Numbered from the stretch's first letter, positions 7,134-64,000 are shown. The stretch is 64,000 bases of DNA from Bacteroidales bacterium (GCA_038246075.1 JBBRRV010000001.1:20008-84007), one strand, 5' to 3'. The notes: generated by a model not told the origin, from the sequence alone. Made by a program: numbers and translations.

Positions 7134-7682
7134 TCAGACCTGGACAAGGAGGTCAGCATTAAATTTTATCCATGTTTTTGCAACAGGATCCCAGACCCAT
7201 TGAAGCGTATAGTACCATGACCCTTTCTGAAGGGTAACATCATCGGAAACATGAGAGAAATATTGAATTCCGTCGTCAAAAAATGTTTTCCAGGCGTGTG
7301 AAGATGCATCCCATTTTAATATCTTACGGCAGAACCAGCGACCACTGGTCTTCTCTTCTGAATTACCACCATAGATAAAGTAGGATATTTTTGAATTGTT
7401 ACATTCATTATAAGCGTAGGATCTTTCACTCGAACTTCCATACACCTCGTCAGTACTTTTGTACCTGATTCCACTGGCGGCTGAGGAAGGATTGAATTCG
7501 TTGAGTGTCTGTAATTGGGTTTTTTCGATAACAGGCACCATGGAAGGTTTTCCTGATGTTGGCACTTCTGCCACCTTGACGCTCTTGTCAGTTGCTTTAT
7601 CAAATTTGCTGCAGGAATAGCTCACTGACAATATGAAAGCCAGTAATGTCGCAAAGGCAAATGTGTAACGGGATAGTTTCAT
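7134..7682 (-). CDS. hypothetical lipoprotein
   Basis: Signal peptide with lipobox (ILSVSYSC|SK). The Trp-rich C-terminal half matches no family I recognise. Confidence 0.55.
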   Translation of the reverse strand: MKLSRYTFAFATLLAFILSVSYSCSKFDKATDKSVKVAEVPTSGKPSMVPVIEKTQLQTLNEFNPSSAASGIRYKSTDEVYGSSSERSYAYNECNNSKISYFIYGGNSEEKTSGRWFCRKILKWDASSHAWKTFFDDGIQYFSHVSDDVTLQKGSWYYTLQWVWDPVAKTWIKFNADLLVQV

Positions 7683-9059: not shown

Positions 9060-9170
9060 AAAGCCTATGTATTTTCCACTATTTTATTATTTTTACCTGT
9101 AAAAGTTTATGATTTTATATTAAAATATTTTCAAAATCGTTATTTGCACTAATAATCAGGATTCATTATT

Positions 9171-10529
9171 ATGAAGAAACTGCTTTTTATTTTTTTACTG
9201 GCTATCATTCTGAGCAGCTGCAAGAATACCGGTAGTGGTGAACTTACGGGGGTTCAGGGGAGAAAAAAATTCTATCAGCCTGATCCTTACGGGATGGCTT
9301 ATGTGCCCCTGGGAAGTTATACGATGGGTGTGGGTGATCAGGATGTTCCTTATGCCCATATTAACGATCCTCGTACGGTTACACTCGCAGCATTCTATAT
9401 GGATGAAACTGAAATAACCAACAATGAGTACAGGCAGTTCGTCTATTGGGTCAGGGATTCTATTGCACGTCGTCTGTTAGGTGAGGTTACCCCGGAAGAT
9501 TTCCTTATCTCGGAAAATAAAAAAACGGGCGAGACATTTGATCCTCCTTTTTTGAACTGGCAATCCAAGCTTGACTGGAGAAAAGAAGAAAACCGCGATG
9601 CCCTGGAGGAGATGTACCTTCCTGAGAACGAACGCTTTTTCAGACGTAAAGAAATTGATACACGTAAACTTTTTTACGAATACTATACAGTAGATCTTCG
9701 GGCCGCAGCCGCAAAAGATTACACCACACCGGGCGACAGCAAAAACGCTGGTTTGGCCAACCGGCCTCAGGGTATGAAAGACAGATCAGTTTACATCCGC
9801 AAGGAAGTGATTAATGTGTATCCCGATACATTGAGCTGGCTTCATGATTATGCATACAGTTTCAATGATCCGATGACAGAGCGATACTTCTGGCACCCGG
9901 CTTACGACAATTATCCTGTTGTTGGTGTAAACTGGAAACAGGCTACTGCCTTCTGCATCTGGCGGTCACGTTTTCTGGAATCCCATCTGAGATCAAAAGG
10001 TGATGCCATCGCAAATGAATTCCGCTTGCCTACAGAAGCTGAATGGGAATGGGCAGCCAGAGGAGGAAATACCTTTAGCCCTTATCCATGGGGAGGTCCT
10101 TATACCCGCAACGATAAAGGCTGTTTCCTGGCCAACTTTAAACCCTTAAGAGGGAATTATATCGACGATGGTGGCGCTACAACAGTAATTGTTGGCCATT
10201 ACCCACCCAATGACTTTGGTTTATATGATATGGCGGGCAACGTTTCTGAGTGGACCAACGATGCCTTTGATGAATCTTCCTATAATTTTACCTGGGACAT
10301 GAATCCCAGTTATATATACAATGCCAAGGACACAGATGCACCGGCATTGAAACGTAAAGTGGTGAGAGGCGGATCATGGAAAGATGTTGCCTATTACCTG
10401 CAGGTGGCTTCACGTGCATATGAATTCCAGGACTCCAGCAAGTGCTATATTGGATTCAGGTGTGTTCAGAATTACCTTGGACGTCAGAAGGATGACAACC
10501 CGGCACGTGCATCTAAAATCTACAATTAG
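9171..10529 (+). CDS. gldK: gliding motility / T9SS lipoprotein GldK (PorK), FGE-sulfatase fold
   Basis: Lipobox ILSSC|KN, an FGE-like region (VNWKQATAFCIWRS, RLPTEAEWEWAARGG, RGGSWKD), and position ahead of gldLMN. Confidence 0.9.
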   Translation: MKKLLFIFLLAIILSSCKNTGSGELTGVQGRKKFYQPDPYGMAYVPLGSYTMGVGDQDVPYAHINDPRTVTLAAFYMDETEITNNEYRQFVYWVRDSIARRLLGEVTPEDFLISENKKTGETFDPPFLNWQSKLDWRKEENRDALEEMYLPENERFFRRKEIDTRKLFYEYYTVDLRAAAAKDYTTPGDSKNAGLANRPQGMKDRSVYIRKEVINVYPDTLSWLHDYAYSFNDPMTERYFWHPAYDNYPVVGVNWKQATAFCIWRSRFLESHLRSKGDAIANEFRLPTEAEWEWAARGGNTFSPYPWGGPYTRNDKGCFLANFKPLRGNYIDDGGATTVIVGHYPPNDFGLYDMAGNVSEWTNDAFDESSYNFTWDMNPSYIYNAKDTDAPALKRKVVRGGSWKDVAYYLQVASRAYEFQDSSKCYIGFRCVQNYLGRQKDDNPARASKIYN

Positions 10530-10632
10530 CAACTTACACAAATAATCATAAGAATCATTATTTTCTTGTGCTTTTTCGATCATTATTCATCACAACTTTT
10601 GCATTAAAGAACTTTAAAAAAATACATACATC

Positions 10633-11658
10633 ATGGCCCTATCAGATTTAGTAAGAAGTAAAGGTTATAAAAATTTCATGGCCAAGCTTTATGGCATTGG
10701 TGCCTCTGTGGTTATCATAGGAGCCTTGTTTAAAATTAACCATTACTGGGGTGCTAACGGATTTCTTATTGTAGGTCTGGCAACGGAAGCCGTCATATTT
10801 TTCTTTTCAGCTTTCGAGCCGCCTCATGTTGATCCTGACTGGAGTCTCGTATATCCTGTACTTGGAGGGCTGGATAAACCCGATCATCGCGCCAGACCTT
10901 CCGATTCAGCATCTGTTACACAACAACTGGATGATATGCTCTCCAGTGCAAAAATTGGTCCGGAACTGATCCAGAGCCTGGGGGATGGACTGCGGAAAAT
11001 GAGTGAAAATACTTCCAAGATGTCGGAAGTAACCAATGCTGCAGTGGCAAATGATGAGTTTGTAAAAAATGTGAAGGCTGCTTCAAAATCAGTGACGGAT
11101 CTTTCAGCATCCTATATCCGTACTGCTGAAACATTAGACCAGGATGTAAATGTAGCGAAGGAATTCTCCACCAATCTCAAAAGTGCTTCCGGATCAGTAA
11201 CAAACCTCGCCAATGTATATAACGAAGTTACAACGTCCATCCGCAGCGAAATGGCTTCTACCGAAGAACTTACCGGAAGCATGAGAACAGCAACTGAGTC
11301 GGCCAACAAGCTCGCACTCAATTATAACAAATCGGCTGAAATTCTGGCTAAATCGGCGGAGATGCTTAATTTTTCAACTGTTGATGTCAAATCATACAAC
11401 GAACATCTGCAGAAGATTTCGGCTAACCTTGCAGCACTCAATACAGTTTACGAACTGCAGCTAAAAGGTTCAAAGGAACAGATTGAATCCTCATCGAAGA
11501 TGCGCAGCACGGTGGATCAGTTTGTGAATAATCTGAATGATTCCTCAACAAACATGACAAAATACAAGGAAGAAATCGACAGCCTTACCAAACGCGTTGC
11601 CGCACTGAACAACGTTTATGGGAATATGCTCACTGCCATGAACGTCAACCTTAAATAA
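10633..11658 (+). CDS. gldL: gliding motility / T9SS protein GldL (PorL)
   Basis: Two N-terminal TM helices (KLYGIGASVVIIGALFKI..., GLATEAVIFFFSAFEPP) followed by a long helical cytoplasmic tail. Operon context supports the call. Confidence 0.9.
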   Translation: MALSDLVRSKGYKNFMAKLYGIGASVVIIGALFKINHYWGANGFLIVGLATEAVIFFFSAFEPPHVDPDWSLVYPVLGGLDKPDHRARPSDSASVTQQLDDMLSSAKIGPELIQSLGDGLRKMSENTSKMSEVTNAAVANDEFVKNVKAASKSVTDLSASYIRTAETLDQDVNVAKEFSTNLKSASGSVTNLANVYNEVTTSIRSEMASTEELTGSMRTATESANKLALNYNKSAEILAKSAEMLNFSTVDVKSYNEHLQKISANLAALNTVYELQLKGSKEQIESSSKMRSTVDQFVNNLNDSSTNMTKYKEEIDSLTKRVAALNNVYGNMLTAMNVNLK

Positions 11659-11698
11659 CCTTATTCTAATCCATTAACTTAAATAATTTAATACCATT

Positions 11699-13258
11699 AT
11701 GGCTGGATATAAGGAAACGCCTCGGCAGAAAATGATTGCAATGATGTACCTGGTGTTAACGGCTTTGCTGGCCCTTAATGTTTCTGTCGAAATTCTCCAG
11801 GCTTTCATTATTGTAAACGAAAGCATGGAATCGACAAATCAGACCTTTGCAAAAAAGATTGATGCCACATATTCAAAATTTGAAATGCAGTATAATCTCA
11901 ATAAGTCCAAGGTTGGGCCTTACTGGGAAAGCGCCAAGAAAGCCGCCACGCTGTCCGAGGATTTGAAAAAGTATATTAATAATGTAAAATACACCGTAAT
12001 CTCAAAATCTGATGGTATCAGTTATGAGCAGGCAAGTAAAATTCCCCTGCGGCTGGTAGAAACCAAGGATAAATATGATCAGCCAACCAATTATTTTATC
12101 GGGAATTCGCAGGATGGCTCGGCCGGAAAAGCCCGCGAACTAAAGGAAAAGATCAATGAGTATAAGGTTGGAATGCTGAAACTTATCGATCCGCAATCGC
12201 GCAACGTGATCAAACTGGGCCTCGATACAGACGGTCCTTTCTATGATGCCAGTGGCATGAAGCAAAACTGGGAAATGCATAACTTTTATGTAACCATTCT
12301 TGCCGCAGATGTCACGATCCTGAATAAACTCATTGCCGAAGTGCAAAGTGCCGAACTCGACGTGATCTCGCACCTGTATGCATCGGTTAGTGCCGAAGAC
12401 TTCAAGTTTGATAAAATCGCTGCCAAGGTCGTTCCTAAAAGTCAGTACGTTTTCTTAGGTGAAAATTATGAAGCCGAAATATTCGTTGCAGCATATGATA
12501 CCAAGCAAAACCCTGAAGTTATGATTGGCGGTCGTTCTATAGAAGGAAAGGAAGGGGTGGCGCAATACAAGGTGCCGGCAAGCTCGGAAGGCCCAAAAGT
12601 CTATGAAGGGACCATTAAGATAGCTGCACCAAACGGTGATATAATGTCATATCCTTTTAAGAGTGATTACATTGTTGCACCTCCGACACTAACCATCTCA
12701 GCTACCAAGATGAATGTATTCTACATTGGGGTTGATAATCCTGTCTCCATATCGGCCGGGGGAGTGGCTGATGCCAACCTCTTACCAAAGATTACATCAG
12801 GTTCAACTATCAGCAGAAGCGGGAAAGGATGGATGGTAAGGTCAAATCAGCCCGGAAAAAGCATCATATCTGTGGAAGCCAGGATGGGGGACCGTGTAAA
12901 ATCAATGGGAACCATGGAATTCAGGGTTAAACGTGTACCCGATCCCAAGCCTTATATCGCAAATACTGAAGGTGGAAACGTAGCTAAAAACTTATTGATT
13001 GCTTCAGGTGCCATTATCCCACGGATGCCCCAGGATTTTGAATTTGACCTGAGTCCTGTCATCACCTCTTATTCATTTGTTTCGATGCGCGGAAGTGATA
13101 TTATACAACTGGAGGGCAAAGGCAACAGGCTGAGCGAAGAAATGAAGAAGATTATTGGTAATGCCAAGCGTGGTGGTCGTATCTGGCTCGAAGATATCTA
13201 TTGCAAGATGCCTGACGGTTCACGAAAATTAGGTACCATCAGCCTAATCATTCAATAA
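11699..13258 (+). CDS. gldM: gliding motility / T9SS protein GldM (PorM)
   Basis: N-terminus MAGYKETPRQKMIAMMYLVLTALLALNVS is the conserved GldM opening, followed by a large periplasmic region. Operon context supports the call. Confidence 0.9.
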   Translation: MAGYKETPRQKMIAMMYLVLTALLALNVSVEILQAFIIVNESMESTNQTFAKKIDATYSKFEMQYNLNKSKVGPYWESAKKAATLSEDLKKYINNVKYTVISKSDGISYEQASKIPLRLVETKDKYDQPTNYFIGNSQDGSAGKARELKEKINEYKVGMLKLIDPQSRNVIKLGLDTDGPFYDASGMKQNWEMHNFYVTILAADVTILNKLIAEVQSAELDVISHLYASVSAEDFKFDKIAAKVVPKSQYVFLGENYEAEIFVAAYDTKQNPEVMIGGRSIEGKEGVAQYKVPASSEGPKVYEGTIKIAAPNGDIMSYPFKSDYIVAPPTLTISATKMNVFYIGVDNPVSISAGGVADANLLPKITSGSTISRSGKGWMVRSNQPGKSIISVEARMGDRVKSMGTMEFRVKRVPDPKPYIANTEGGNVAKNLLIASGAIIPRMPQDFEFDLSPVITSYSFVSMRGSDIIQLEGKGNRLSEEMKKIIGNAKRGGRIWLEDIYCKMPDGSRKLGTISLIIQ

Positions 13259-13386
13259 CTATAAATATATATTGCTGAACCTGAATATCATCAAATAATA
13301 AATAGCATAGTGTAATTGATTTCGAACCAGCCAAACATGATCAAATGGCTGTTCCTTGTGACCTGTGAAATAACAAATAAGTACTT

Positions 13387-14241
13387 ATGAAAAAAATTAT
13401 TTTCTTACTTCCTGTTTTTGTCCTCCTGGCCCTGATGGCCAATGCTCAGCAGGTGCTGGATAGCCCTCCGCTGGATGGCGTGTATGTTAAGAACAACATA
13501 TTGGAAAGAAAACCTATAACCTATCCTTATATCCGTGAAGCGGATATTATGTGGTCCAAACGCATCTGGCGTGTGATTGAGATGCGCGAAAAAATGAACC
13601 AGGCTTTCTACTATCCTGAAATTCCGCATAACAACTGGCGCAGCTTTATGACAGTTTTGATGGACGGCATTAAAGAAGGGACCATAACGGCCTATGATGC
13701 ATCTTCCAGTACAGATGAATTTATTATTCCCCTTACAAAGGATGAATTGATGAAACGCCTGGAGCGCACCGACACCGTTTCCCTCCAACGTTCCTATGCT
13801 CCCTATGATTATTACGATACGGTCATGGCAGTTAAGTTTGAACCTACAGATGTTAAGCGTTTGAGGATAAAGGAAGATATATTTTTTGACAAGCAGCGTT
13901 CAGTTACTGAAATTCGCATCATTGGCATCGGGCCCGTAAAGGATAACGTTGATCCCAAGACAGGTGAATTCAGAGGATATCAGCAATTGTTCTGGGTTAA
14001 CTTTGCGGAAGCCAGGCCATTACTTGCCAAAGCCGAAGTATTCAACCGTCAGAATACTGCACAAAAAATGACGTATGACGATCTTTTCTGGAAACGACTG
14101 TTTGACAGTTATATATACAAAGAAGAAAACGTGTATGACCGTAAAATTGATGAATACGCAACAGGTCTTGATGCCTTGCTGGAATCAGAACGCATAAAGA
14201 ACGAACTTTTCAATTTCGAACAGAATCTTTGGGAATATTAA
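13387..14241 (+). CDS. gldN: gliding motility / T9SS protein GldN (PorN)
   Basis: Signal peptide plus PLDGVYVK...YPYIREADIMWSKRIWRVIEMREKMN, typical of GldN. It is the last gene of the cluster. Confidence 0.9.
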   Translation: MKKIIFLLPVFVLLALMANAQQVLDSPPLDGVYVKNNILERKPITYPYIREADIMWSKRIWRVIEMREKMNQAFYYPEIPHNNWRSFMTVLMDGIKEGTITAYDASSSTDEFIIPLTKDELMKRLERTDTVSLQRSYAPYDYYDTVMAVKFEPTDVKRLRIKEDIFFDKQRSVTEIRIIGIGPVKDNVDPKTGEFRGYQQLFWVNFAEARPLLAKAEVFNRQNTAQKMTYDDLFWKRLFDSYIYKEENVYDRKIDEYATGLDALLESERIKNELFNFEQNLWEY

Positions 14242-14261
14242 ACTGAGAAAATGACTTAGAA

Positions 14262-14296
14262 AGCCCTGTCGCGTCATGCGGCCGGGCTTTTTTTTG
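14262..14296 (+). terminator. Rho-independent terminator closing the porP-gldKLMN operon
   Basis: AGCCCTGTCGC...GCGGCCGGGCT hairpin followed by TTTTTTTT, 20 nt after the gldN stop codon. Confidence 0.6.
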
Positions 14297-14398
14297 TGCA
14301 GCAAAATGCTGCTTTGCGTTTCCGCTGAGACTGAATTAAGGTAATCTCTTTGTAAACGTTGTTTTTATGTAAGTTTGTATCGGCCACCAAATCCAGCA

Positions 14399-16504
14399 AT
14401 GTCGCATCAATTTCTAGAAACCAAAGTCGAATTTCTGAAAGGAGTCGGGCCTAGAAAAGCCGAGTTACTATCGCGTGAGCTTAACATAAGCACTTTTGCC
14501 GACCTCATTACTTACTATCCTTTCCGTTATGTGGACCGCAGCCGTTTTTATACCGTAAGCCAGATAAATGATGAATCCGCCTGGGTGCAGTTGCGCGGAA
14601 AGATCACTGGTGTCCAGCTGCTTGGAACAGGTCATGCCACCCGCTTGTCAGCTACTTTCCGCGATGCAAGCGGAAGCATTGAACTGATCTGGTTCCAGGG
14701 GATAAAGTGGGTGAAAGATAAGTTTAATGCCGATGAGGAATATGTGGTTTTCGGTAAACCATCACTCTTTAACGGACGCTATAATATCTCGCATCCTGAA
14801 GTTGAAACCTGGGCTATGCATTCAACACAGGCTGCGGATACGCTTCAGCCATTTTACAACACTACCGAGAAGTTGAAGGCGCAGGGGCTCAACAGCCGTG
14901 CTATAGGAAAGCTGATACACATGCTTTTGACATCGGCAAAAGGCAGGTTATCCGAAACGCTGCCTGATGAAATTTTGCAGGCAAAAAACCTGGCAGGGAG
15001 CGAAGAAGCGCTTACCAACATACACTTTCCGCTTCATCCCGCGGCACTTGCAAAAGCTGTACAACGCATCAAATTTGAGGAACTGTTTTTTATCCAGTTG
15101 CGGCTGCTGAAGCTCAAGATAATACGCATGCAAAAGCTTCAGGGGCTCAGATTTCCTGTAATCGGCGAACTCTTCAATTCATTTTACCACAAATATTTAC
15201 CCTTTGAACTTACCGGTGCGCAGAAGAAAGTATTGCGTGAAATAAGGGCCGACCTTGGGTCGGGGCATCAGATGAACCGTTTGTTACAGGGTGATGTAGG
15301 CAGCGGAAAAACACTCGTGGCACTGATGAGTATGCTTATCGCACTGGATAACGGTTATCAGGCCTGCCTGATGGCTCCAACCGAGATACTGGCTAACCAG
15401 CATTTTGCTACGATCACCAGAATGCTCAGCGGCATGCCGGTAACGATAGATCTGCTCACCGGCAGTACCCGCAAGGTGCAGCGCAAGCTGCTTCACGAAA
15501 ACCTGTCAGCCGGTGACTTACACATTCTCATCGGAACACATGCCCTCATTGAGGATACCGTAATATTCAGTAAACTTGGAATGGTCATCATTGATGAACA
15601 GCATCGCTTCGGTGTCGAACAAAGAGCCAGGATGTGGTCCAAAAGCACTGTCCTGCCTCATATTCTCGTAATGACAGCCACACCCATTCCGCGCACACTT
15701 GCCATGACATTGTATGGCGACCTGGATTATTCCGTCATAGATGAATTGCCTCCGGGACGCAAGCCGGTAAAGACATACCACTTCTTCGACAAGGATATTC
15801 CGAAGGTTTTTGGGTTTATGAAAAGGCAGATAGCAGAAGGAAGGCAAATATTTGTGGTATATCCGTTGATCAAGGAATCAGAAAAACTCGATCTGAAGGA
15901 TCTGGAGGAAGGTTTCAGAACAATTGAAATCGAATTTCCTGCTCCCCGCTATGCAGTGAGCATGGTGCACGGGCAGATGAAAGCAAATGAAAAGGAAGCG
16001 GAGATGCAGCGTTTTGTTCGCGGAGAAACACATATTATGGTAGCTACCACAGTGATCGAAGTGGGCGTTGATGTTCCCAATGCTTCTGTCATGGTAATCG
16101 AGAATGCCGAGCGGTTTGGATTATCGCAGCTTCACCAGCTGCGCGGCAGGGTGGGAAGAGGAGCTGATGCTTCACATTGCCTGCTTATTACCAGTTACAA
16201 ACTAACCACCGATGGCCGCAAGCGTATTGAGACCATGGTGCGCACTTCCGACGGATTCGAAATAGCCGATACCGACCTGAGGCTCAGGGGACCTGGCGAC
16301 CTGGAAGGAACGCAGCAGAGCGGTATTGTCGACCTGAAACTGGCCGATATCATTCATGATGAAAGAATTATCCGTGAAGCACGCGAACTGGCTACAGCTG
16401 TCCTGGATGATGACCCGATGCTCGAAAAACCCGGGAATTATCGCCTGGCTTCTCATCTTAATTATTTGAACAGGATCAAAACCAATATGGGGATGATCAG
16501 TTGA
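14399..16504 (+). CDS. recG: ATP-dependent DNA helicase RecG
   Basis: Wedge-domain N-terminus, Walker A GDVGSGKT, DEQHRFG, TATPIPRT and QLRGRVGRG motifs. I prefer ATG 14399 (MSHQFLETKVEFLKGVGP) over the TTG at 14375 given in the ORF track. Confidence 0.95.
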   Translation: MSHQFLETKVEFLKGVGPRKAELLSRELNISTFADLITYYPFRYVDRSRFYTVSQINDESAWVQLRGKITGVQLLGTGHATRLSATFRDASGSIELIWFQGIKWVKDKFNADEEYVVFGKPSLFNGRYNISHPEVETWAMHSTQAADTLQPFYNTTEKLKAQGLNSRAIGKLIHMLLTSAKGRLSETLPDEILQAKNLAGSEEALTNIHFPLHPAALAKAVQRIKFEELFFIQLRLLKLKIIRMQKLQGLRFPVIGELFNSFYHKYLPFELTGAQKKVLREIRADLGSGHQMNRLLQGDVGSGKTLVALMSMLIALDNGYQACLMAPTEILANQHFATITRMLSGMPVTIDLLTGSTRKVQRKLLHENLSAGDLHILIGTHALIEDTVIFSKLGMVIIDEQHRFGVEQRARMWSKSTVLPHILVMTATPIPRTLAMTLYGDLDYSVIDELPPGRKPVKTYHFFDKDIPKVFGFMKRQIAEGRQIFVVYPLIKESEKLDLKDLEEGFRTIEIEFPAPRYAVSMVHGQMKANEKEAEMQRFVRGETHIMVATTVIEVGVDVPNASVMVIENAERFGLSQLHQLRGRVGRGADASHCLLITSYKLTTDGRKRIETMVRTSDGFEIADTDLRLRGPGDLEGTQQSGIVDLKLADIIHDERIIREARELATAVLDDDPMLEKPGNYRLASHLNYLNRIKTNMGMIS

Positions 16505-20596: not shown

Positions 20597-21139
20597 ATGA
20601 AAAGTATCAAAAGATTTAATATCCTAAAAATCAGCATAGTGCTGGTTGTTTTTACATCAGCGCTTTTGCTGCTGAATAGCTGCGGGATATACTCATTTAC
20701 AGGAGCATCAATTTCCCCGAGTGTGAAAACAGTATCAATCAACTATTTTCCTAACAATGCCACATTTGTTTCGCCTACTTTTAGTCAGAAGTTTTCGGAT
20801 GCGCTTCGTGATAAATTTACGACCCAGACCAACCTGATGATCGTGAACAAAGGTGGCGATCTGAATATTGAAGGCGAAATCACAGGTTTCGATCCTAATC
20901 AGCCTGTTGCCATTCAAGGAGGGGCCGATCAGACAGCATCTTTATACCGGCTTACCGTTACAGTTAATGTGCGGTTTACCAATAATAAGGACGAAAAGCA
21001 GAACTTTGAGACCAAATTCAGTACCTACGAAGATTATGGCCGCGATAAACGTTTCTCTGACGTAGAGGATAACCTGATTGGTCTTATTAACGAAAAACTG
21101 GTGCAGGATATATTTAATAAGGCTGTTGTAAACTGGTAA
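20597..21139 (+). CDS. lptE: LptE family LPS-assembly lipoprotein
   Basis: Lipobox LLLNSC|G followed by YSFTGASI...VSINYFPN, typical of Bacteroidota LptE-family proteins. The conserved position between the bEBP and secG supports the call. Confidence 0.6.
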   Translation: MKSIKRFNILKISIVLVVFTSALLLLNSCGIYSFTGASISPSVKTVSINYFPNNATFVSPTFSQKFSDALRDKFTTQTNLMIVNKGGDLNIEGEITGFDPNQPVAIQGGADQTASLYRLTVTVNVRFTNNKDEKQNFETKFSTYEDYGRDKRFSDVEDNLIGLINEKLVQDIFNKAVVNW

Positions 21140-21158
21140 TGCCAGGCATAATTGTACA

Positions 21159-21968
21159 ATGGAAAGAAGTCAGATCATAGCATACATGAGTCATCCGGAG
21201 CAAACAGGCGCGGCGGATCCTGGCATACTCGAACAATTGACGCATACCTATCCATATTGCCAGACATTTCAGCTGCTATATGCAAAATGCCTTCATAACC
21301 AGGATAATCCGCGCTTTGGAACCCAGGTCAAACTGGCCGCAGCCTATGCCGGTAACCGCGGACTTCTGAAGCAGCTGATCGAAAAAACAATTTCAACAGC
21401 AACACCTGTTGGTGATGCCGAAACGGAACCGGCAGCAGCACCGCCAAAGACAATCCCTATTGCAGAAGCTGCGGAAAATAAATCAGCAGTCGGGGCGGAT
21501 AACGCTGAGCAGATTCGCAAATCACCGGTTTATCTGTCGCCTGAGGGGGTGCAGCGCACGCGGCTTATTGATATGATCCGCTCGCGCATGGCCGGAATCC
21601 CTGGCGAACCTGAGCAGGTTGAACCCCGGATGGCAAAAAGTGATATCCGTGAGCTTTCATCTTCCACAGGCGCAGGTTTAGCCCCAAGAAGGCCTTCAGA
21701 GAGTAAAGCAGCACTTATCGATCGCTTCATCAGAGAGGAACCCCGGCTGAGCCCTCCCAAACGCGAATTCTTTAACCCTGTGGACATGGCCAAGCTGAGT
21801 TCTGTGGATAAGGATGACATGGTAAGTGAGACATTGGCGCGGATTTTCGTTCAACAAGGTGATATACCGAAAGCTATAAAAATATATGAACGCTTATGTT
21901 TGAATTTACCGGAAAAAAGTAGTTACTTTGCAGCCCAAATTGAAAATCTGAGAAGAGGTCTCAAATAA
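21159..21968 (+). CDS. conserved hypothetical protein (low-complexity middle, TPR-like C-terminal helices)
   Basis: Long open frame tightly packed between lptE and secG. The C-terminus is ...SETLARIFVQQGDIPKAIKIYERLCLNLPEKSSYFAAQIENL. I recognised no catalytic motif. Confidence 0.6.
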   Translation: MERSQIIAYMSHPEQTGAADPGILEQLTHTYPYCQTFQLLYAKCLHNQDNPRFGTQVKLAAAYAGNRGLLKQLIEKTISTATPVGDAETEPAAAPPKTIPIAEAAENKSAVGADNAEQIRKSPVYLSPEGVQRTRLIDMIRSRMAGIPGEPEQVEPRMAKSDIRELSSSTGAGLAPRRPSESKAALIDRFIREEPRLSPPKREFFNPVDMAKLSSVDKDDMVSETLARIFVQQGDIPKAIKIYERLCLNLPEKSSYFAAQIENLRRGLK

Positions 21969-29783: not shown

Positions 29784-31850
29784 ATGGTTAGTAAGGAAGC
29801 ATCGGAAAAAAAAAGTGGCATGATGTTCCGGATGCTCATCATATGCTTAATTCAACTTGCGTTGCCATTTCTTTCGTCCGCAAAGGTTCCTGCAATTCCC
29901 CGGATTAATTGTGCCAGCACCAATGCAGCCGGGGCAATTACATTGCAGTGGGAGGCGGACCCGGGAAATGCTGATCATTATACTATTTATTGGTCGGCTG
30001 TGGCAACTGGTCCATATAGTCCGGAAACTCCACCGGGTGGCGGCGCCACTGCCAGCTGGCAACTCACAGGGGTAAACGGGAATAAGGTGCAGTATTATTT
30101 CTTTGTACGTGCTTATGATGCAGCCGGGAATTCATCCGGGGCATCGGATACAGTTTCGAACATACTCCTGAAAATGCCGCTGATCGCGAAATCTAAAGGC
30201 ATTGCCAACCTGGAGTGGAATGCATTTGATACTTCGAAACCCGGGATAAATCATGTAGTGCGAACAGATCCTGACGGGAAATCCAAGACTTTTAATTTAA
30301 TGGCAGGCTTATCCTTCAGGGATACGATCACTTCTCCATATTGTGACTCGATCTATCTGACCTACAGAGTTGAAAATACAGGTAGCTGTATTTCCGGTTC
30401 CAATGCCATGACAAATTTATTTCTGGATATCATTCAGCCTGTTGATGCGTTCATGGATAGTATATCCATCGATCCCAACGGGCATCCTGTGATATCCTGG
30501 ATTCCCAGCATTTCCAATGATGTGGGTGGTTACAGAATAGAACAAAGTCTGAAAGGTGGATTTTGGTCCCTCATTGGCATTTCACGCGGAAATCTTATAA
30601 CTTCCTATGCTTCTGATTCAATGAATGCCTGTAAGGTTATCAAAACATTTGCCGTCATAACGCTTGATCAGTGCAAAAACAGGAGCACCGGCGAGCATTC
30701 TTATCCTCATGCCCTGAGCACCTTGAGAATGGATCAGCCATCAGTTAATGAATGCAAAGGGACAGCCCTGCTCAACTGGAATACTTACAAAAATATGAAT
30801 CCTGCCCTGGGCGGGTACAGGATTTACCGGAAGGAGGGATCAAAACCGTTGGCTTTGATCGGGAGTACCACTCCCTCAGTCACAACTTTTACCGATGAAA
30901 AGGGCTTTACTTTAGGCACCAGCTATCATTATTTCGTTCGCGCTTTTAGCCTGGACGGGCAGCGGTCATCGAGTTCATGCCCTGTTGGCTTCACCTTTAC
31001 CAGCCTGCCCAGGCCAGACACACTTTCGCTTACTTATGCCAGCGTAACTGATCATCAAACCATAAGAATGGGTATTCACTTTAACCCATTGGAAACAGTA
31101 ACAAGCATAAGGGTGCTAAGGTCGGACACGGTAACCGGTCCATTTGATACAATCGCTTCCATTGCCCCACGAAGCTTTTATGACGATACCACTGCTGCCA
31201 TTAACCGGCGGAGCTATTATTATAAGATTGATGCCCTTGATAAATGTGGTTCCCTTACCCGCAGTTCAGGCCTGACCCGAACGATTTTCCTCACTTGCCA
31301 TACCAACGGTGATGAATCTCACGCACTCAGCTGGAATGCTTACGAAGGCTGGCGTGGCGGAATCGACCATTACGAAATATACCGCTTTGTGAATAATATT
31401 CCTGATCAGGCTAATCCCATCTCAACATTAACAGGGATTACGACATATACCGATCCTCCCGCCGCCTCGCTGTCGGGAAGCGATGTTGTTTCATATTATG
31501 TTAAAGCCATTGAGGCCAAAGTTAATGTGCTTACCGAAAGTATCTCTAATACTGTCATGGCCAGACAACAACCCCTCGTATTGCTTCCCAATGCATTTAT
31601 TCCCCGGGGAATAAAAAACAACAGGTTCAGACCTGTGATGGATTATTTCGTGGATGAGGGCAATTACCAGTTAATGGTTTACAATAAATGGTGGCAACAG
31701 GTCTTTATTTCCAGGGATAAAAGTATTGGCTGGGATGGTAAGTTTAATGGGGATTATGCGCCTGGCGGCATTTATTACTACCGTTTAAATTATAAGTCTC
31801 TCACCGGCAATTCCTATACGAAAACAGGGGTGCTCCTATTGGTTGAATAA
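29784..31850 (+). CDS. T9SS type-B sorting-domain (gliding motility-associated C-terminal domain) protein with Fn3-like repeats
   Basis: C-terminus LLPNAFIPRG...NNRFRPV...WDGKFNGDYAPGGIYYYRLNYKS...GVLLLVE is typical of the type-B CTD. Upstream are repeated Fn3-like W..W..YRIYR modules. A start at ATG 29820 (MMFRMLIICL...) is more likely than 29784. Confidence 0.8.
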   Translation: MVSKEASEKKSGMMFRMLIICLIQLALPFLSSAKVPAIPRINCASTNAAGAITLQWEADPGNADHYTIYWSAVATGPYSPETPPGGGATASWQLTGVNGNKVQYYFFVRAYDAAGNSSGASDTVSNILLKMPLIAKSKGIANLEWNAFDTSKPGINHVVRTDPDGKSKTFNLMAGLSFRDTITSPYCDSIYLTYRVENTGSCISGSNAMTNLFLDIIQPVDAFMDSISIDPNGHPVISWIPSISNDVGGYRIEQSLKGGFWSLIGISRGNLITSYASDSMNACKVIKTFAVITLDQCKNRSTGEHSYPHALSTLRMDQPSVNECKGTALLNWNTYKNMNPALGGYRIYRKEGSKPLALIGSTTPSVTTFTDEKGFTLGTSYHYFVRAFSLDGQRSSSSCPVGFTFTSLPRPDTLSLTYASVTDHQTIRMGIHFNPLETVTSIRVLRSDTVTGPFDTIASIAPRSFYDDTTAAINRRSYYYKIDALDKCGSLTRSSGLTRTIFLTCHTNGDESHALSWNAYEGWRGGIDHYEIYRFVNNIPDQANPISTLTGITTYTDPPAASLSGSDVVSYYVKAIEAKVNVLTESISNTVMARQQPLVLLPNAFIPRGIKNNRFRPVMDYFVDEGNYQLMVYNKWWQQVFISRDKSIGWDGKFNGDYAPGGIYYYRLNYKSLTGNSYTKTGVLLLVE

Positions 31851-35694: not shown

Positions 35695-36540
35695 ATGAAT
35701 AAATTTGTTCTTTTTGCTTTACTTATTCCATTGCTTGGGGCATGCAGCTATTTCAGGCATGAAAGTAGCAAGGATGCTGTGGCTAAAGTGTATGATCATT
35801 ATCTTTACAAAGGCGATCTTCAAGGAATTGTTCCCAGAGGAACTAAAACAAAAGACAGCATAAATATTACAAAATCGTTTATCAATAACTGGATCAGGCA
35901 GGCATTGGTGCTGCATCAGGCTGAATCAAACCTGAGCGCAGAAAAGCAGGATTTTACACGCCAGCTTGAGCTCTACCGCAATTCACTGGTTATTTATGAA
36001 TATGAATCGGAACTTATCAGACAGAAACTCGACACAGTGGTCCCGATGAAGGAAATAGAGGATTATTATGCGGCGAATCAGGCCAATTTTCAGCTTCATC
36101 AGAATATTGTGCAGGTGAACTATGTTATGCTTAGCAAGAATTCACCGGTTGTGGGTAAATTCCGAACACTGCTTAAATCTGATGCAGCAGCCGACAGGGA
36201 AAAGCTTGAAGATCTCTGCCAGGCTTCCGCAGCAAGCGCTTCGCTGGATAACGAAAACTGGATTCCTTTCACCGATCTTGTGAAGCGGGTTCCACTTTCT
36301 GTTTCCGATCAGGTGGATTTTCTGGGTAATAACAAATTCGTGGAATTGGAAGATTCGCTATACCTTTACCTGCTGCGCATTAAAGCATACAAAACAAAGG
36401 AAAGTGTTTCGCCATTGAGTTTTGAAGTCCGCAATATCCGGTCGATCCTTGTGAATAAACGTAAACTGGAACTGGTGAGCAGGATGGAGGAGGATGCATT
36501 TCAGAAAGGGATGAAGAAAAAAGCATTTGAAATTTATTAA
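35695..36540 (+). CDS. hypothetical lipoprotein (possible SurA-N-like chaperone module) between two PPIase genes
   Basis: Lipobox LLGAC|S and a helical composition. I saw no PPIase motif. Synteny is conserved between the parvulin genes. Confidence 0.5.
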   Translation: MNKFVLFALLIPLLGACSYFRHESSKDAVAKVYDHYLYKGDLQGIVPRGTKTKDSINITKSFINNWIRQALVLHQAESNLSAEKQDFTRQLELYRNSLVIYEYESELIRQKLDTVVPMKEIEDYYAANQANFQLHQNIVQVNYVMLSKNSPVVGKFRTLLKSDAAADREKLEDLCQASAASASLDNENWIPFTDLVKRVPLSVSDQVDFLGNNKFVELEDSLYLYLLRIKAYKTKESVSPLSFEVRNIRSILVNKRKLELVSRMEEDAFQKGMKKKAFEIY

Positions 36541-45452: not shown

Positions 45453-46361
45453 ATGCAAAACGATAAAAACCTCAGCCTGACGCGCATCGGAATATTTTTT
45501 GATGGCAATTATTTCCTTCATGTAAGCAATTATTATAATTACTTTCACCCCAGGAGGAGCCGCCTAAGCGTTTCAGGCCTGAGCCAGTTTATACGCAAAC
45601 AGGTGGCCAGGGAAGAAGGGAAATCGGAAAGCCTCATTCAGATCGTGGATGCGCATTTCTTCAGGGGAAGGCTCTATGCCTCCGAAGCAAGCCAGAAAGG
45701 CAAACAACTGTTTTACGACCGTGTTTTCGACGATATCCTTATGTCCGAAGGTGTTACTACGCACTATCTGCCGGTGAAAACCGTTTCGGGGGTTAAGCAG
45801 GAAAAAGGCATTGATGTATGGCTGGCGCTTGAAGCCTTTGAGCTGGCTTTCTACAAACATTTTGATGTGCTGGTGCTCATCGCGGCCGATGGTGACTATG
45901 TTCCCCTCGTGCGTAAGCTCAACACGCTGGGCACACGTGTGATGATCCTGGGCTGGCAGTTTGAATATACCAACAATGAAGGTCAGGAAATGTCGACCGG
46001 TACTTCACAGGATCTGTTTGATGAAGCTACCTATCCGCTGGCGATGCACGAACTCGTTGAAAACGGCCTGAAACAGAACCTTCCGATCTTCAACAACCTT
46101 TTCGTAAAATCGGTTGGCCGGCGTGAGGCTGCTAAACCTGTCAAAGGCGGAGACCAGAAAACAAAAAAGAGTACCATCCAAAATCTGAAAAAAGGATATG
46201 GATTTATAAAACATAGTCCTCAAAACCTGTTCTTCTATTATCAGAGCCTTGTGGGTACTGACTTTAACGATCTGCGTGAAGGTGATAAAGTAGCTTTTGA
46301 CATCGACAAGAATGACAAGGGCGAACCTATTGCCATTAATGTTCGGTTATTGGAAAGTTAA
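45453..46361 (+). CDS. NYN (LabA-like PIN-fold) domain protein fused to a C-terminal cold-shock (OB) domain
   Basis: The N-terminal 180 aa carry IGIFFDGNY...EKGIDVWLALEAFE...VLIAADGDYVPLVRKL..GTRV, the acidic residues characteristic of NYN. The C-terminus KKGYGFIKHSPQNLFFYYQSL...EGDKVAFDI..NDKGEPIAINV is CSD-like. Confidence 0.75.
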   Translation: MQNDKNLSLTRIGIFFDGNYFLHVSNYYNYFHPRRSRLSVSGLSQFIRKQVAREEGKSESLIQIVDAHFFRGRLYASEASQKGKQLFYDRVFDDILMSEGVTTHYLPVKTVSGVKQEKGIDVWLALEAFELAFYKHFDVLVLIAADGDYVPLVRKLNTLGTRVMILGWQFEYTNNEGQEMSTGTSQDLFDEATYPLAMHELVENGLKQNLPIFNNLFVKSVGRREAAKPVKGGDQKTKKSTIQNLKKGYGFIKHSPQNLFFYYQSLVGTDFNDLREGDKVAFDIDKNDKGEPIAINVRLLES

Positions 46362-60562: not shown

Positions 60563-60598
60563 TTTGTTTTTGATATCCCGGGATATTCTCTACTTTTG
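60563..60598 (+). promoter_or_regulatory. Bacteroidota-type promoter candidate for gatE (TTTG ... TACTTTTG) enclosing a perfect 14-bp palindrome
   Basis: The -7 box TACTTTTG at 60591-60598 lies 26 nt upstream of ATG 60624. TTTG elements lie at 60563-60566 and 60569-60572. The palindrome ATATCCCGGGATAT at 60573-60586 sits in the spacer. Confidence 0.4.
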
Positions 60599-60623: not shown

Positions 60624-62597
60624 ATGAAAGAACCATTTGATTCGCTACAGAATTACGAGGATACAAAAAAAGCCGCCGGCTACGTCACACGCAAAGAGGC
60701 AACACAGGCAACCTATGATGCTATTGGCTTTATGTCGGGGCTGGAAGTTCACCAGCAACTGAAAACCACCGAAAAATTATTCTGCCGTTGTCCGGCAGGC
60801 GTTTTCCAGAAACCCGACCAATACGATGCTGAGGTAGTCCGGCATATGCGTCCCACCTTGAGCGAACTCGGCGAATATGACGGAACAGCACTCATGGAGT
60901 TTAAAACACGTAAAAATATTGTTTACCGGCTCCGCAACGTCACCACATGCACTTACGAAGTGGATGATACACCGCCATTCCCGCTTAACCGTGAAGCGCT
61001 GCAGATTTCCATTGAGATAGCACATCTCTCCAAATTGAACATTGTGGGTGAAGTGCATATCACCCGCAAACAATATCTCGATGGCAGCATCCCGACAGGC
61101 TTTCAGCGCACTGCCATTATCGGTGTGGAAGGCGAAATCCCACTCAAAAATAAAAAAATCCGCCTCATTCAACTTAGCCTGGAAGAGGATTCCTGTCGCG
61201 AAGTTTCAGACATTGGTCATACCCGCATTTACCGCACCGACAGGCTTGGCATGCCGCTTATTGAAACGGTGACTTACCCCGACATGGTAAATCCCGACGA
61301 GGTGAAGGAAGCCTGCGATTACATCCGCTTCCTCAACCGCAGCACTGGCAAGGTACGCACAGGCATGGGAGCCGGCCGCGAAGATGTAAATGTGAGCTGC
61401 AGGGGAGGATCACGCGTGGAGATTAAAGGGGTGGCACATACAAAATGGATCCCGGAGCTAACACATATCGAATGTTTCAGGCAATGGTCTTTACTGCAGA
61501 TGCGCGATCTGTTGCGCATACGTATCGCTGATGGTAAAAAATGGAAAATCCAATCTGAAGTACTCGATTACCATTCATTCAGGTTTGAATATGAGCCGCT
61601 TAAATTATCTAAAAACAACAAACATAAGATCATCGCTATCAACCTGCCTGGCTTCAAAGGGATGCTGTCGCATTTTACGCAGCCCGGAAAAATGTTTGCC
61701 AACGAGATATCTGAAAGGCTGAAGGTTATTGCCTGCCTCGAAGCCCCAAACCTCATCCATTCTGAACAGTTCGAGCAGCCGGTAAGTGCTGAAGATTTCG
61801 ATCGTATCCGGACCCTATTGAAGGCCGGCGGCGACGACGCCCAGCTCATTATCTGGGGGCCGGAAGAGGATATGGCTACAGCGCTCGAAAGTATTGAAGA
61901 GCGCTGCAAAATGGCCTTCGAAGGTGTTCCCAATGAAACCAGAAAATCATTTCCCGACGGAACAACCATATTCGAACGCGTACTTCCCGGAGCCGACCGC
62001 ATGTACCCTGATACTGATTCTGCTCCTATCCCGCTTGAAAACAGTTATATTGAGGAACTCAGCCATAATATACCCGATGAGGTGATTGGCCGGTATAACC
62101 AGATGAAAGCCTGGGGCATCCCCGAGGATACCTACACTTACATTTTCAAGAAAAACCTTTATCCGTTAATACTGCGTATTGTTGAAGAGTTGCAGGTAAA
62201 ACCTGTTTTTGCAGGAGTGCTTTTCGGACATACACTCAAATTTGTGGAGGGTCACTATACGCCATCAGCAGAATTCAATTTCCGCATTATCCACGCACTG
62301 ATCAAATATTTGAAAGAACAGGGACTGGCACTTGAAATGGCGCGCAAGATGCTGCCTGTCCTTTATCAGAACCCCAAAATGGATTTCGAATCGGTACTCA
62401 CAAGCATCAGGTTCAAACGCATCAGTCATCAGGAGATATTTTCGCACATTCCTTTCCTGAAGAAGAAATTTGCTGAAATCAGCGCCAACGGCAATGCGAA
62501 GAAGGAATCGGACTGGATCATGGGGCAATTGCGCAAAATGGCGCTGGGGAATATCAGCATGAAGGATCTCGTTGAAAAGATTAGCGGCGAAAAATAA
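60624..62597 (+). CDS. gatE: Glu-tRNA(Gln) amidotransferase subunit E (GatE, archaeal-type)
   Basis: GLEVHQQLKT.EKLFCRCP, RHMRPTLSELGEYDGTALME, CTYEVDDTPPFPLN and ITRKQYLDGSIPTGFQRTAIIG match my memory of GatE and differ from GatB, which has CPVC.G.PG. At 657 aa it is much longer than GatB. It is followed by gatD. I prefer ATG 60624 over the start at 60519 given in the ORF track. Confidence 0.85.
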   Translation: MKEPFDSLQNYEDTKKAAGYVTRKEATQATYDAIGFMSGLEVHQQLKTTEKLFCRCPAGVFQKPDQYDAEVVRHMRPTLSELGEYDGTALMEFKTRKNIVYRLRNVTTCTYEVDDTPPFPLNREALQISIEIAHLSKLNIVGEVHITRKQYLDGSIPTGFQRTAIIGVEGEIPLKNKKIRLIQLSLEEDSCREVSDIGHTRIYRTDRLGMPLIETVTYPDMVNPDEVKEACDYIRFLNRSTGKVRTGMGAGREDVNVSCRGGSRVEIKGVAHTKWIPELTHIECFRQWSLLQMRDLLRIRIADGKKWKIQSEVLDYHSFRFEYEPLKLSKNNKHKIIAINLPGFKGMLSHFTQPGKMFANEISERLKVIACLEAPNLIHSEQFEQPVSAEDFDRIRTLLKAGGDDAQLIIWGPEEDMATALESIEERCKMAFEGVPNETRKSFPDGTTIFERVLPGADRMYPDTDSAPIPLENSYIEELSHNIPDEVIGRYNQMKAWGIPEDTYTYIFKKNLYPLILRIVEELQVKPVFAGVLFGHTLKFVEGHYTPSAEFNFRIIHALIKYLKEQGLALEMARKMLPVLYQNPKMDFESVLTSIRFKRISHQEIFSHIPFLKKKFAEISANGNAKKESDWIMGQLRKMALGNISMKDLVEKISGEK

Positions 62598-62600
62598 GAA

Positions 62601-62737
62601 GGGGCGAGTGGGAGATGGGGAGATGGGGAGATGGGGCGAAATCTGTGAGGGGCGAGTGGTCAAGTAGGACAATTTTGATAATTTGAACTTGGAATTTGGA
62701 CCTTGGATCTTGGAATTTGGAATTTGGAATTTGGAAC
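62601..62737 (+). repeat. Intercistronic repeats: G-tract array (GGGGCGAGT, GGGAGAT, (GGGGAGAT)x2, GGGGCGA, ..., GGGGCGAG) followed by eight 7-bp TTGGAAT-type units
   Basis: Read directly. G-tracts lie at 62601-62652, and heptamers TTTGAAC/TTGGAAT/TTGGACC/TTGGATC/TTGGAAT x3/TTGGAAC at 62682-62737. Confidence 0.9.
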
Positions 62738-62762
62738 TTTTTAGGGCATTAAATAACAGAAA

Positions 62763-64000
62763 ATGAGCGAAGATTTTTTCCAGGGATATAAAGGAGCGGC
62801 ACTCGAAGTGCTGAAGAAATTTAATGTCAGGGTTTGGGGGCAGGCAACTGTTGCCACCTCGCGTGGTGCATTTATCGGCACTGTCCTGCCACGGTCGGAA
62901 AATGATGATGATCAGCATATTGTAATGAAAATACCTACAGGCTATAATGTGGGTTTGGATATCACAACGATCACCTCGATGAAGGAAACCGGATATAAGA
63001 AAGCCAATTATAAAATCCCGGAAAAGGAATTTCCAACAACGGTAGGTTTGCCAAAAGTGAAACTCATTGGTACGGGGGGTACCATCGCTTCCCGGCTCGA
63101 TTACCGCACTGGTGCGGTGATTCCTGCTTTTTCACCCGGAGAATTGTATGGGGCCGTTCCTGAGCTGGCACAAATATGTAACCTCACCACCGAAAAGATC
63201 TTTGCCGTTTTCAGCGAAAACATGGCTCCGGAGAATTATAAGAAGCTGGCTATAGCCATTGGAAAGGAAATTGAAAGCGGCGTGGATGGCATCGTAATAG
63301 GTCATGGCACCGATACACTTCACCATACCGCCGCAGCACTGACTTTTATGGTCCAGAATTCGCCCGTTCCCATCGTATTGGTGGGCTCGCAGCGATCCTC
63401 GGACCGTCCGAGTTCCGATGCTGCCCTTAACCTTATGCATGCCTGCACTGCCGCCGGACATGGCGATATCGCCGAGGTGATGGTTTGTATGTTTGGACCA
63501 ACATCGGATGAATATGGCTTCCTGCACCGTGGCACGCGTGTAAGGAAGATGCACTCATCCTACCGTTCTACCTTTCGAACCATCGGTGATACACCCCTGG
63601 CAACGGTTACCCGGGCAGGGGTAAAACCAATCAAACAGGACTACAAACCCCGCCGCAAGGACCGCAACGTTTCCATTTTACCTTATTTCGAAGAGAAGGT
63701 AGCTATCGTTTACTATTACCCAAATATGCAGCCTGACATCATCGATGCATTGGTGGCAAATGGTTACAAAGGAATTGTGATTGCCGGCACCGGGCTGGGA
63801 CATGTGAACAAGCCCATTTATCCTGCTATCGAGCGTGCCCATGCGGCTGGTGTTGCCATCTACATGACAGTGCAAACCCTCTGGGGTTATGTAGGCATGT
63901 TCGTTTACGATACAGGGCGTGATCTCATGGCAAAAGGCATCATTCCAACAGGAAACATGCTCCCCGAAGTTGCGTATATTAAATTAGGCTGGGCGCTGGG
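62763..64000 (+). CDS. gatD: Glu-tRNA(Gln) amidotransferase subunit D (GatD, archaeal-type), 5' partial (runs off the window)
   Basis: My own translation from ATG 62763 gives MSEDFFQGYKGAALEVLKKFNV...GQATVATSRGAFIGTVLPRSE... (small N-terminal domain). It is followed by asparaginase-type motifs LIGTGGTIASRLDYRTGAV and IGHGTDTLHHTAAAL, then VLVGSQRSSDRPSSDA. The frame is open to position 64000. It is absent from the ORF track because it has no stop codon inside the window. Confidence 0.85.
   Translation, partial: MSEDFFQGYKGAALEVLKKFNVRVWGQATVATSRGAFIGTVLPRSENDDDQHIVMKIPTGYNVGLDITTITSMKETGYKKANYKIPEKEFPTTVGLPKVKLIGTGGTIASRLDYRTGAVIPAFSPGELYGAVPELAQICNLTTEKIFAVFSENMAPENYKKLAIAIGKEIESGVDGIVIGHGTDTLHHTAAALTFMVQNSPVPIVLVGSQRSSDRPSSDAALNLMHACTAAGHGDIAEVMVCMFGPTSDEYGFLHRGTRVRKMHSSYRSTFRTIGDTPLATVTRAGVKPIKQDYKPRRKDRNVSILPYFEEKVAIVYYYPNMQPDIIDALVANGYKGIVIAGTGLGHVNKPIYPAIERAHAAGVAIYMTVQTLWGYVGMFVYDTGRDLMAKGIIPTGNMLPEVAYIKLGWAL

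Follow-up and report, generated by a model that had tools for sequence, protein, structure and literature searches.

A gatE–gatD pair in a Bacteroidales chromosome and the predicted bacterial GatDE lineage to which it belongs

How does a bacterium of the order Bacteroidales come to carry genes for both subunits of GatDE, the heterodimeric Glu-tRNA(Gln) amidotransferase that reviews of 2021 and 2022 report from archaea only, and which role could this enzyme play in such a host? The question is raised by a stretch of 64,000 nucleotides from a Bacteroidales bacterium (GCA_038246075.1, JBBRRV010000001.1:20008-84007), called the window in what follows, which ends in the two genes. As far as can be judged from sequence, this gatE→gatD operon likely encodes a working heterodimeric GatDE that would act as a Glu-tRNA(Gln) amidotransferase and would derive from an old bacterial GatDE lineage. 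The two genes and the domains of their products are as follows.

60624..62597, + strand: gatE, Glu-tRNA(Gln) amidotransferase subunit E, 657 aa, the tRNA-binding kinase/amidase subunit (hidden Markov model (HMM), structure alignment, fold search)
62763..64000, running off the window end, + strand: gatD, Glu-tRNA(Gln) amidotransferase subunit D, the asparaginase-type glutaminase subunit (HMM, Pfam, structure alignment)
GatE, about residues 30–300 and 421–500: catalytic cradle
GatE, about residues 301–420: insertion resembling aspartyl-tRNA synthetase (AspRS)
GatE, about residues 501–657: helical region and putative YqeY-like tail
GatD, residues 98–288: asparaginase N domain
GatD, residues 312–412: asparaginase C domain

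Identity of the two subunits

The mechanical open reading frame (ORF) of gatE starts at 60519 and its stop is at 62597. The ATG at 60624 is favoured as the start, since homologues span residues 1–657 of the resulting product, and an identical 657-aa protein was chosen by independent gene calls on two other assemblies. A reading of the window made from its sequence alone (hereafter the sequence-only reading) had called the pair GatE and GatD orthologues rather than GatB and a free asparaginase, on the grounds of several GatE motif blocks, a length beyond that of bacterial GatB and asparaginase-type motifs in the second gene. Every one of the GatE blocks (GLEVHQQL…KLFCRCP, RHMRPTLSELGEYDG, YEVDDTPPFPLN and ITRKQYLDGSIPTGFQRTAIIG) is present in the translation of 60624..62597, both GatD motifs (TGGTIAS…DYRTGAV and HGTDT) are found in that of 62763..64000, and GatE, insertion included, has 657 aa whereas GatB, which lacks the AspRS-like insertion, has about 480. 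The call itself was borne out by HMM searches, structure alignments and a fold search.

The GatE of the window exceeds the cut-offs of two NCBIfam equivalog models of its family, NF003107 (469.7 bits, cut-off 456) and TIGR00134 (414.1 bits, cut-off 319.6), and fails every GatB equivalog (best score 117 bits, lowest cut-off 314.8). Its residues 31–610 align to chain 2D6F_C and its residues 29–623 to chain 1ZQ1_C. The AlphaFold model, in which the core of the cradle has a predicted local distance difference test (pLDDT) score below 50, was used for the insertion, the tail and the ranking of fold matches only; with this model, Foldseek places archaeal GatE first (2e-19) and then GatB (1.6e-5). 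The AspRS-like insertion, about 120 extra residues (301–420), aligns with the GatE structures, is modelled at a pLDDT of 85–94 and was matched by Foldseek to bacterial AspRS with a probability of ~0.9; the corresponding Pfam entry PF02938 is present in a close GatE homologue (P0104). Residues 490–657 are confidently modelled as all-helical and the GatE HMM alignment extends to residue 653; the Pfam family GatB_Yqey has no match in the window GatE and is seen in two relatives, P0089 and, weakly, P0299.

The window contains the 412 N-terminal residues of GatD, out of about 461, the full-length orthologues having 461 aa. This part scores above the cut-offs of both GatD equivalogs of NCBIfam, TIGR02153 (474.6 bits, cut-off 324) and NF003217 (470.5 bits, cut-off 310), carries the Pfam domain GatD_N (PF18195) at residues 35–70 (36.6 bits, cut-off 25.7) and aligns from residue 8 to residue 412 with chain 2D6F_A (361 bits). 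The type I asparaginase subfamily model is passed as well, with 349.9 bits, less than either GatD equivalog score, and the equivalog models of free asparaginases are failed. By nearly all the criteria that can be applied to sequences, both subunits are genuine GatE and GatD.

The same two subunits, with the same domain order, make up the archaeal GatDE of Methanothermobacter thermautotrophicus (2D6F) and Pyrococcus abyssi (1ZQ1): GatD consists of GatD_N followed by a type I asparaginase fold, and GatE of the cradle, the AspRS-like insertion, the helical region and the YqeY-like tail, which is putative in the window protein. The window proteins align to both structures over nearly their full length and have identical catalytic residues (H/E/E in GatE, T plus T-D-K in GatD). 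They differ from the archaeal enzymes by their bacterial host, by their sequence (30–38% identity for GatE and 46–48% for GatD, in a separate clade with 100% support), by the tight gatE→gatD operon that the bacterial genes form and by the length of bacterial GatD (461–465 aa vs 435–438 aa in the two solved archaeal chains). They differ also by the tail of GatE and by the likely substrate, a tRNA with a U1–A72 pair instead of the required A1–U72 (see below). Bacterial GatCAB (Staphylococcus aureus, 2DF4/3IP4) catalyses the same overall reaction, and its GatB subunit is a paralogue of GatE that shares the cradle chemistry and a YqeY-like tail; GatB recognises the U1–A72 pair of bacterial tRNA(Gln) (PMC2330236). 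In GatCAB, however, the glutaminase is the amidase-family GatA plus GatC, not an asparaginase-type GatD. Bacterial glutaminyl-tRNA synthetase (GlnRS), the normal route of the Bacteroidales, yields the same end product, Gln-tRNA(Gln), but is a class I synthetase working with free glutamine, unrelated and without homology to GatD or GatE.

Distribution, selection and origin

A protein search with the window GatE returned at least 8000 matches, the best 120 of which are 69–97% identical to it; for many of these 120, NCBI or JGI already uses the name 'Glu-tRNA(Gln) amidotransferase subunit GatE', in metagenome-assembled genomes (MAGs) labelled Lentimicrobium, Bacteroidales or Bacteroidetes. When each species was represented by a single genome, a scan found at least 225 genomes with a relative. 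The locus counts given hereafter refer to the best 80 of these 225 (67–83% identity). Every one of the 80 is a MAG, the label is Bacteroidales or Bacteroidota in nearly all cases, and among them are two complete GatDE-bearing chromosomes of 3.5 and 4.6 Mb (OY759717.1, OY762280.1). The rarity of bacterial GatDE implied by the sequence-only reading is thus contradicted by the number of species-level genomes, by the names already in place at NCBI and JGI and by a clade that spans several phyla. Its claim of novelty, which was to fall if such orthologues proved both common and already described in this lineage, fares unevenly: they are common, and they are described as far as database annotation goes. 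The annotation is therefore not new, as databases already label these genes GatE or GatD; what the literature searched lacks is a description of the bacterial branch, since no paper describing bacterial GatDE was found there, although this search was largely without subscription journals and a prior description is possible.

In 62 of the 80 loci, gatD is the gene that directly follows gatE. The two genes alone are conserved together, the other neighbours being lineage-specific, and neither a third subunit nor any other conserved partner gene was found in the GatE loci. No gatD was seen in the ~6–10 kb downstream of gatE in L005, L020, L022, L035, L039, L040, L044, L045 and L061, nor in the 2–4 kb downstream of it in L034, L042, L043 and L047. 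Bacteroidales-type GatE proteins, 67–74% identical to that of the window, also occur under the labels Thiohalospira sp., Chlorobiota, Chloroflexota and Omnitrophica WOR_2 (L065, L068; P0041, P0082); these records are probably MAG contigs that were binned or labelled wrongly, rather than true cases of GatE in those phyla.

Could the pair be an artefact, either archaeal DNA brought in by contamination or chimeric assembly, or a GatB and a free type I asparaginase taken for GatDE? The pair has a GC content of 0.48, slightly higher than the window mean, and GatD passes, as said, a type I asparaginase subfamily model. Against this, GatB models fail by about 200 bits, the GatD_N domain is present and the GatD equivalog scores exceed that of the asparaginase subfamily; the genes are linked in most loci and the cassette also lies on the two complete chromosomes. 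At least ten independent MAG species keep the neighbours found in the window (OstA-like, MlaD-like, amidase and LptD-like genes) beside the cassette, which rules out contamination and chimeric assembly. The remaining ~60 kb of the window is Bacteroidota core chromosome, and gene identification confirmed the Bacteroidota flanks proposed from the sequence, i.e. a core of the type IX secretion system (T9SS) and LptD/OstA-like genes. As the sequence-only reading had also noted, the composition of the pair is not shifted, its GC content falling within the window range (0.39–0.51). Contamination and 'GatB plus asparaginase' were both rejected on the basis of the HMM scores, GatD_N and the conserved loci, and an artefact of any kind appears extremely improbable. 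The idea of an old, domesticated acquisition is supported by the occurrence of the same cassette with Bacteroidota neighbours in many independent MAGs and from strong purifying selection.

This selection is apparent in nine genome pairs syntenic with the window, in which identity is 69–82% for GatE and 81–93% for GatD, as against 44–72% for the four envelope genes next to them. Judged from these identities, GatE and GatD are under purifying selection at housekeeping level. In M. thermautotrophicus, mutating His15, Glu157 or Glu184 of GatE abolishes both the kinase and the transamidase activities (PMC2330236). Their counterparts in the window protein, H43, E187/E188 and E214, are invariant together with a dozen other core residues in 42 bacterial and 79 archaeal GatE representatives, as are the residues that bind the CCA-aminoacyl end. 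The mechanism of GatD relies on a Thr nucleophile and a Thr-Asp-Lys triad (PMC2330236), and T104, T107, T183, D184, T185 and K262 are invariant in 65/65 bacterial GatD sequences.

An exhaustive search of representatives at 50% identity showed that GatE identity grades from 61% to about 30%. An unrooted neighbour-joining distance tree (121 full-length sequences, 621 columns, 100 bootstraps) groups the window protein, the Bacteroidales and all the representatives at 42–61% identity in one bacterial clade (n=42, 100% bootstrap), the named members of which are MAGs of Deltaproteobacteria and of candidate division CSSED10-310. Five other members of this clade, checked by their gene context, are clearly bacterial and all have gatE→gatD, often overlapping, with a GatD of 461–465 aa; the contexts seen include σ54 regulators, genes for resistance-nodulation-division (RND) efflux, HPr kinase and phosphotransferase system (PTS) genes, a ribosome hibernation factor, murC/murD/mraZ/rsmH/lnt and hybrid histidine kinases. 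Outside the bacterial clade, all named sequences are archaeal (Heimdallarchaeota, Thermoprotei, Acidilobaceae and Desulfurococcaceae), and the nearest neighbour of the clade is a Heimdallarchaeota cluster (54% bootstrap). GatD is congruent in its sequence identities with the pattern of the GatE clade, the window protein being 60–73% identical to other bacterial GatD and 46–48% to the GatD of the archaeal structures.

No GatB outgroup was found in the DNA of the window and related loci; the lone weak GatB match, in L146, proved to be KsgA followed by glutamyl-tRNA synthetase (GluRS). As there is no such outgroup, the tree cannot separate nesting within archaea, i.e. transfer, from a sister position, i.e. 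inheritance from LUCA, life's last universal common ancestor. The bacterial GatDE lineage most likely goes back to an ancient archaeal donor, from which it would have passed to several bacterial phyla and been inherited within the Bacteroidales; the direction and the age of this transfer are inferred and not shown directly.

Predicted reaction, tRNA recognition and relation to GlnRS

By analogy with the archaeal enzyme, the following scheme can be proposed for the pair. GatE and GatD would assemble, probably as α2β2 as in archaea, and the GatE cradle would bind the acceptor end of Glu-tRNA(Gln). With ATP and Mg2+ bound by H43, E187/E188 and E214, GatE would phosphorylate the γ-carboxyl of the attached glutamate, while GatD would hydrolyse glutamine or asparagine through the nucleophile T107 and the triad T183, D184 and K262. 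The ammonia released would move via an internal tunnel to GatE, where the activated intermediate would be converted to Gln-tRNA(Gln); a GatE is expected to act in this way on Glu-tRNA(Gln) and not on Asp-tRNA(Asn). Upstream of GatDE, a GluRS that mischarges tRNA(Gln) would be required. Archaeal GatDE depends on Glu-tRNA(Gln) made by a non-discriminating GluRS, reads the A1–U72 pair and the tRNA's D-loop through its YqeY-like tail (PMC2330236, PMC9499178) and uses Asn about as well as Gln (PMC2330236).

How could such an enzyme recognise a bacterial substrate? The helical/tail region of the window GatE is only 12–14% identical to its archaeal counterpart, and within the Bacteroidales this tail is 51–55% identical, with 29 positions conserved at ≥95%. 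Bacterial tRNA(Gln) starts with U1–A72. The tail being divergent from that of archaea but constrained within the Bacteroidales, its sequence can be read as tRNA recognition that was retuned to the bacterial U1–A72 tRNA(Gln). A tRNA-Gln(UUG) gene with U1–A72 was found in L045 (3193-3264, - strand), 1.1 kb downstream of gatE and on the opposite strand; it is the sole tRNA-Gln gene among 60 loci scanned and its adjacency to gatE is probably a coincidence. The textbook description of GatDE as an archaeal enzyme of GlnRS-less organisms with an A1–U72 tRNA(Gln) thus does not fit this case, the host being a member of the Bacteroidota and the only gatE-adjacent tRNA-Gln having U1–A72. Archaeal restriction is, in this respect, the known distribution and not a feature of the family, and the membership of the proteins in GatE and GatD is unaffected.

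The same observations could be taken as signs that GatDE was recruited to another substrate and kept its kinase/amidase chemistry for another aminoacyl-tRNA or a non-tRNA carboxylate. The region that reads the tRNA D-loop has diverged strongly, the archaeal A1–U72 determinant is missing from bacterial tRNA(Gln) and the host order normally needs no amidotransferase. This explanation appears improbable: every core residue is invariant, also where the CCA-aminoacyl end is bound, the AspRS-like insertion and the confidently modelled helical tail are kept, the latter under constraint in the Bacteroidales, the pair has neither a biosynthetic cluster nor a new partner as a conserved neighbour, and both GatE and GatD score above their equivalog cut-offs. 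With all catalytic residues retained, recruitment to a different amidation, which the sequence-only reading had considered, is without positive support.

The predicted Glu-tRNA(Gln) amidotransferase has to be placed beside what is known of the host order. The nine Bacteroidales rows of a 2014 survey all have glnS = 1, asnS = 1 and gatCAB = 0 (PMC4206432), so that the order is thought to use GlnRS alone. None of the glnS, gltX, gatCAB or tRNA genes lies in the 64-kb window, and a tblastn search with an E. coli GlnRS probe gave no match in 1.38 Mb including the window and the GatE loci. A metagenome scan with the HIGH motif of GlnRS yielded 120 loci, and one of them used as a seed (L134) led to at least 120 Bacteroidales GlnRS matches. 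None of the record names of the GlnRS contigs (JAPLDJ01, JAPLDI01, JBAXVX01, SESA/SESC/SESG01 and CAYSBZ01) is among the 80 GatE MAG prefixes.

One way to reconcile these data is that GatDE is a parallel or conditional route beside GlnRS, which would rescue Glu-tRNA(Gln) made by a relaxed GluRS, as a form of quality control, or would provide Gln-tRNA under glutamine scarcity, possibly with Asn as the donor. The survey points in this direction, with GlnRS in all and GatCAB in none of its nine Bacteroidales rows, as do the patchy occurrence of GatDE within the order, in MAG lineages only among the best 80 matches, the acceptance of Asn by the archaeal enzyme, and the co-occurrence of GlnRS, AsnRS and an amidotransferase that is known in bacteria of 68 genera (PMC4206432). 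However, a redundant enzyme would not usually be under purifying selection as strong as that on the pair, and neither a regulatory RNA nor an obvious regulator was found with the cassette. A parallel route has, on balance, a little less than an even chance.

The other way is a special case of the proposed function, in which GatDE would be essential as the sole route to Gln-tRNA(Gln), in hosts that have neither GlnRS nor GatCAB and use a non-discriminating GluRS as archaea do. It would account for conservation at the level of housekeeping genes (GatD at 81–93% vs about 50% for envelope genes), and the best 80 GatE genomes all belong to uncultured MAG lineages, outside the 2014 survey of cultured strains. 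Moreover, none of the 120 listed GlnRS matches nearest to a compositionally similar Bacteroidales seed is labelled Lentimicrobium, vs six GatE matches, although these missing labels are weak evidence because the two match lists centre on different lineages. On the other side, glnS is present in all nine Bacteroidales rows of the survey, and GlnRS is abundant in environmental Bacteroidales MAGs; a sole route is rather unlikely. Coexistence with GlnRS is thus slightly favoured over it, because GlnRS is universal in the Bacteroidales rows surveyed, while the strong conservation of GatDE pulls the opposite way.

Several points weigh against the proposed function as a whole. If the host has GlnRS together with a discriminating GluRS, GatDE would have no Glu-tRNA(Gln) to act on, and neither a GluRS gene nor a conserved tRNA gene accompanies the cassette in the loci around gatE. 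Archaeal GatDE requires the A1–U72 pair that bacterial tRNA(Gln) lacks, so substrate recognition must have changed. About a dozen genomes have no gatD within 10 kb of gatE, so that the genes of the two subunits are unlinked there or gatD is missing. The tree has no outgroup, and neither the direction of transfer nor the sister position of the Heimdallarchaeota (54%) is established. Finally, the activity, expression and substrate of this GatDE are predictions.

A broader proposal, put forward tentatively and with somewhat worse than even odds, is that of a bacterial GatDE branch (Bacteroidales, Deltaproteobacteria, CSSED10-310 and others) with a tail retuned to U1–A72, through which these bacteria would make Gln-tRNA(Gln), as an essential or a conditionally essential route, in an order thought to rely on GlnRS only. 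If so, GatDE would be no archaeal signature and the history of Gln-tRNA synthesis would have to be redrawn, by inheritance from LUCA or by transfer from archaea to bacteria, possibly from an Asgard-like donor. GatDE is used in evolutionary models, for its co-evolution with A1–U72 and for the absence of GlnRS from archaea, and a large bacterial clade under selection shows that it can work, or was made to work, in a bacterial translation system. The questions that this raises are how U1–A72 tRNA(Gln) is recognised, whether GatDE coexists with GlnRS or replaces it, and whether it stems from archaeal transfer or from LUCA. The finding is surprising against the textbook statement, yet visible in current annotations: automated annotation is ahead of the review literature on the distribution of GatDE.

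Some observations were made on the GlnRS loci themselves. In environmental Bacteroidales MAGs (L205, L208, L209 and L211-L215), folB lies upstream of glnS on the opposite strand, and a convergent gltX (509–512 aa) follows 1–2 kb downstream of glnS in L205, L208, L209 and L211–L214, so that paralogous synthetase genes adjoin. The GlnRS locus L186, taken for a relative of a GatDE host on account of its tetranucleotide similarity to OY762280.1, proved to belong to Ignavibacteria/Melioribacteraceae and was rejected. Its resemblance to Bacteroidales GatE loci shows that tetranucleotide correlations of 0.97–0.98 occur between short low-GC loci without relatedness; composition alone is unreliable for assigning low-GC fragments of 10–20 kb.

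Intergenic signals and other genes of the window

The following features were recorded in front of gatE and between the two genes.

60591..60598, + strand: candidate promoter element TACTTTTG, a match to the Bacteroidota -7 consensus TAnnTTTG, 26 nt 5' of the gatE ATG
62598..62762, + strand: gatE–gatD spacer, 165 nt, with two short tandem-repeat tracts
62610–62636: spacer repeat GGGAGATG, 3.4 copies
62685–62739: spacer repeat with a 7–8-nt unit, GAACTTG/TTGGAATT, 7.9 copies

The TAnnTTTG box that the sequence-only reading had placed in front of gatE is indeed there, but the motif is not enriched in the window, where it occurs 62 times vs 56 ± 8 expected by chance. At such a frequency, the box alone is weak evidence of a promoter and its position is the sole argument for it. 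Scans for promoters and terminators stayed at chance level, no terminator-like site was seen in the gatE–gatD spacer and Rfam gave no match across the window or around the pair. Related loci usually have 12–190 nt between the two genes. Two short-read contigs with an identical gatE (from SRR19962012 and SRR19962014) both end within the spacer, so that its repeats break short-read assemblies.

Immediately 5' of gatE lie genes for an LptD_2-family protein, an amidase, an MlaD-like protein and an OstA-like protein. The flanking core genes of the window comprise porP, gldK/L/M/N (T9SS), recG, pheT, groEL, mazG, glyA and guaB, and it also encodes SurA-like isomerases, methylmalonyl-CoA mutase and dpp7. 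The T9SS core cluster is complete (porP/sprF, gldK/porK, gldL, gldM and gldN, at 8103-14241) and lies just upstream of recG and pheT. Sizeable ORFs of 688, 180, 269, 298, 182 and 281 aa, at 29784-31850, 20597-21968, 4997-5893, 7134-7682 and 35695-36540, have no NCBIfam match at E ≤ 1e-5. In one related Bacteroidales MAG (L003), a tmRNA gene with the tag GTDYNYALAA is found at 14087-14456, ~0.8 kb 3' of gatD. The window also encodes, at 45453-46361, a 302-aa protein that has a weak similarity to the NYN domain (residues 119–168) and, at its C terminus, a cold-shock domain (residues 244–298), an unusual pairing of domains; the cold-shock part matches the model of the retron Se72 effector below its cut-off.

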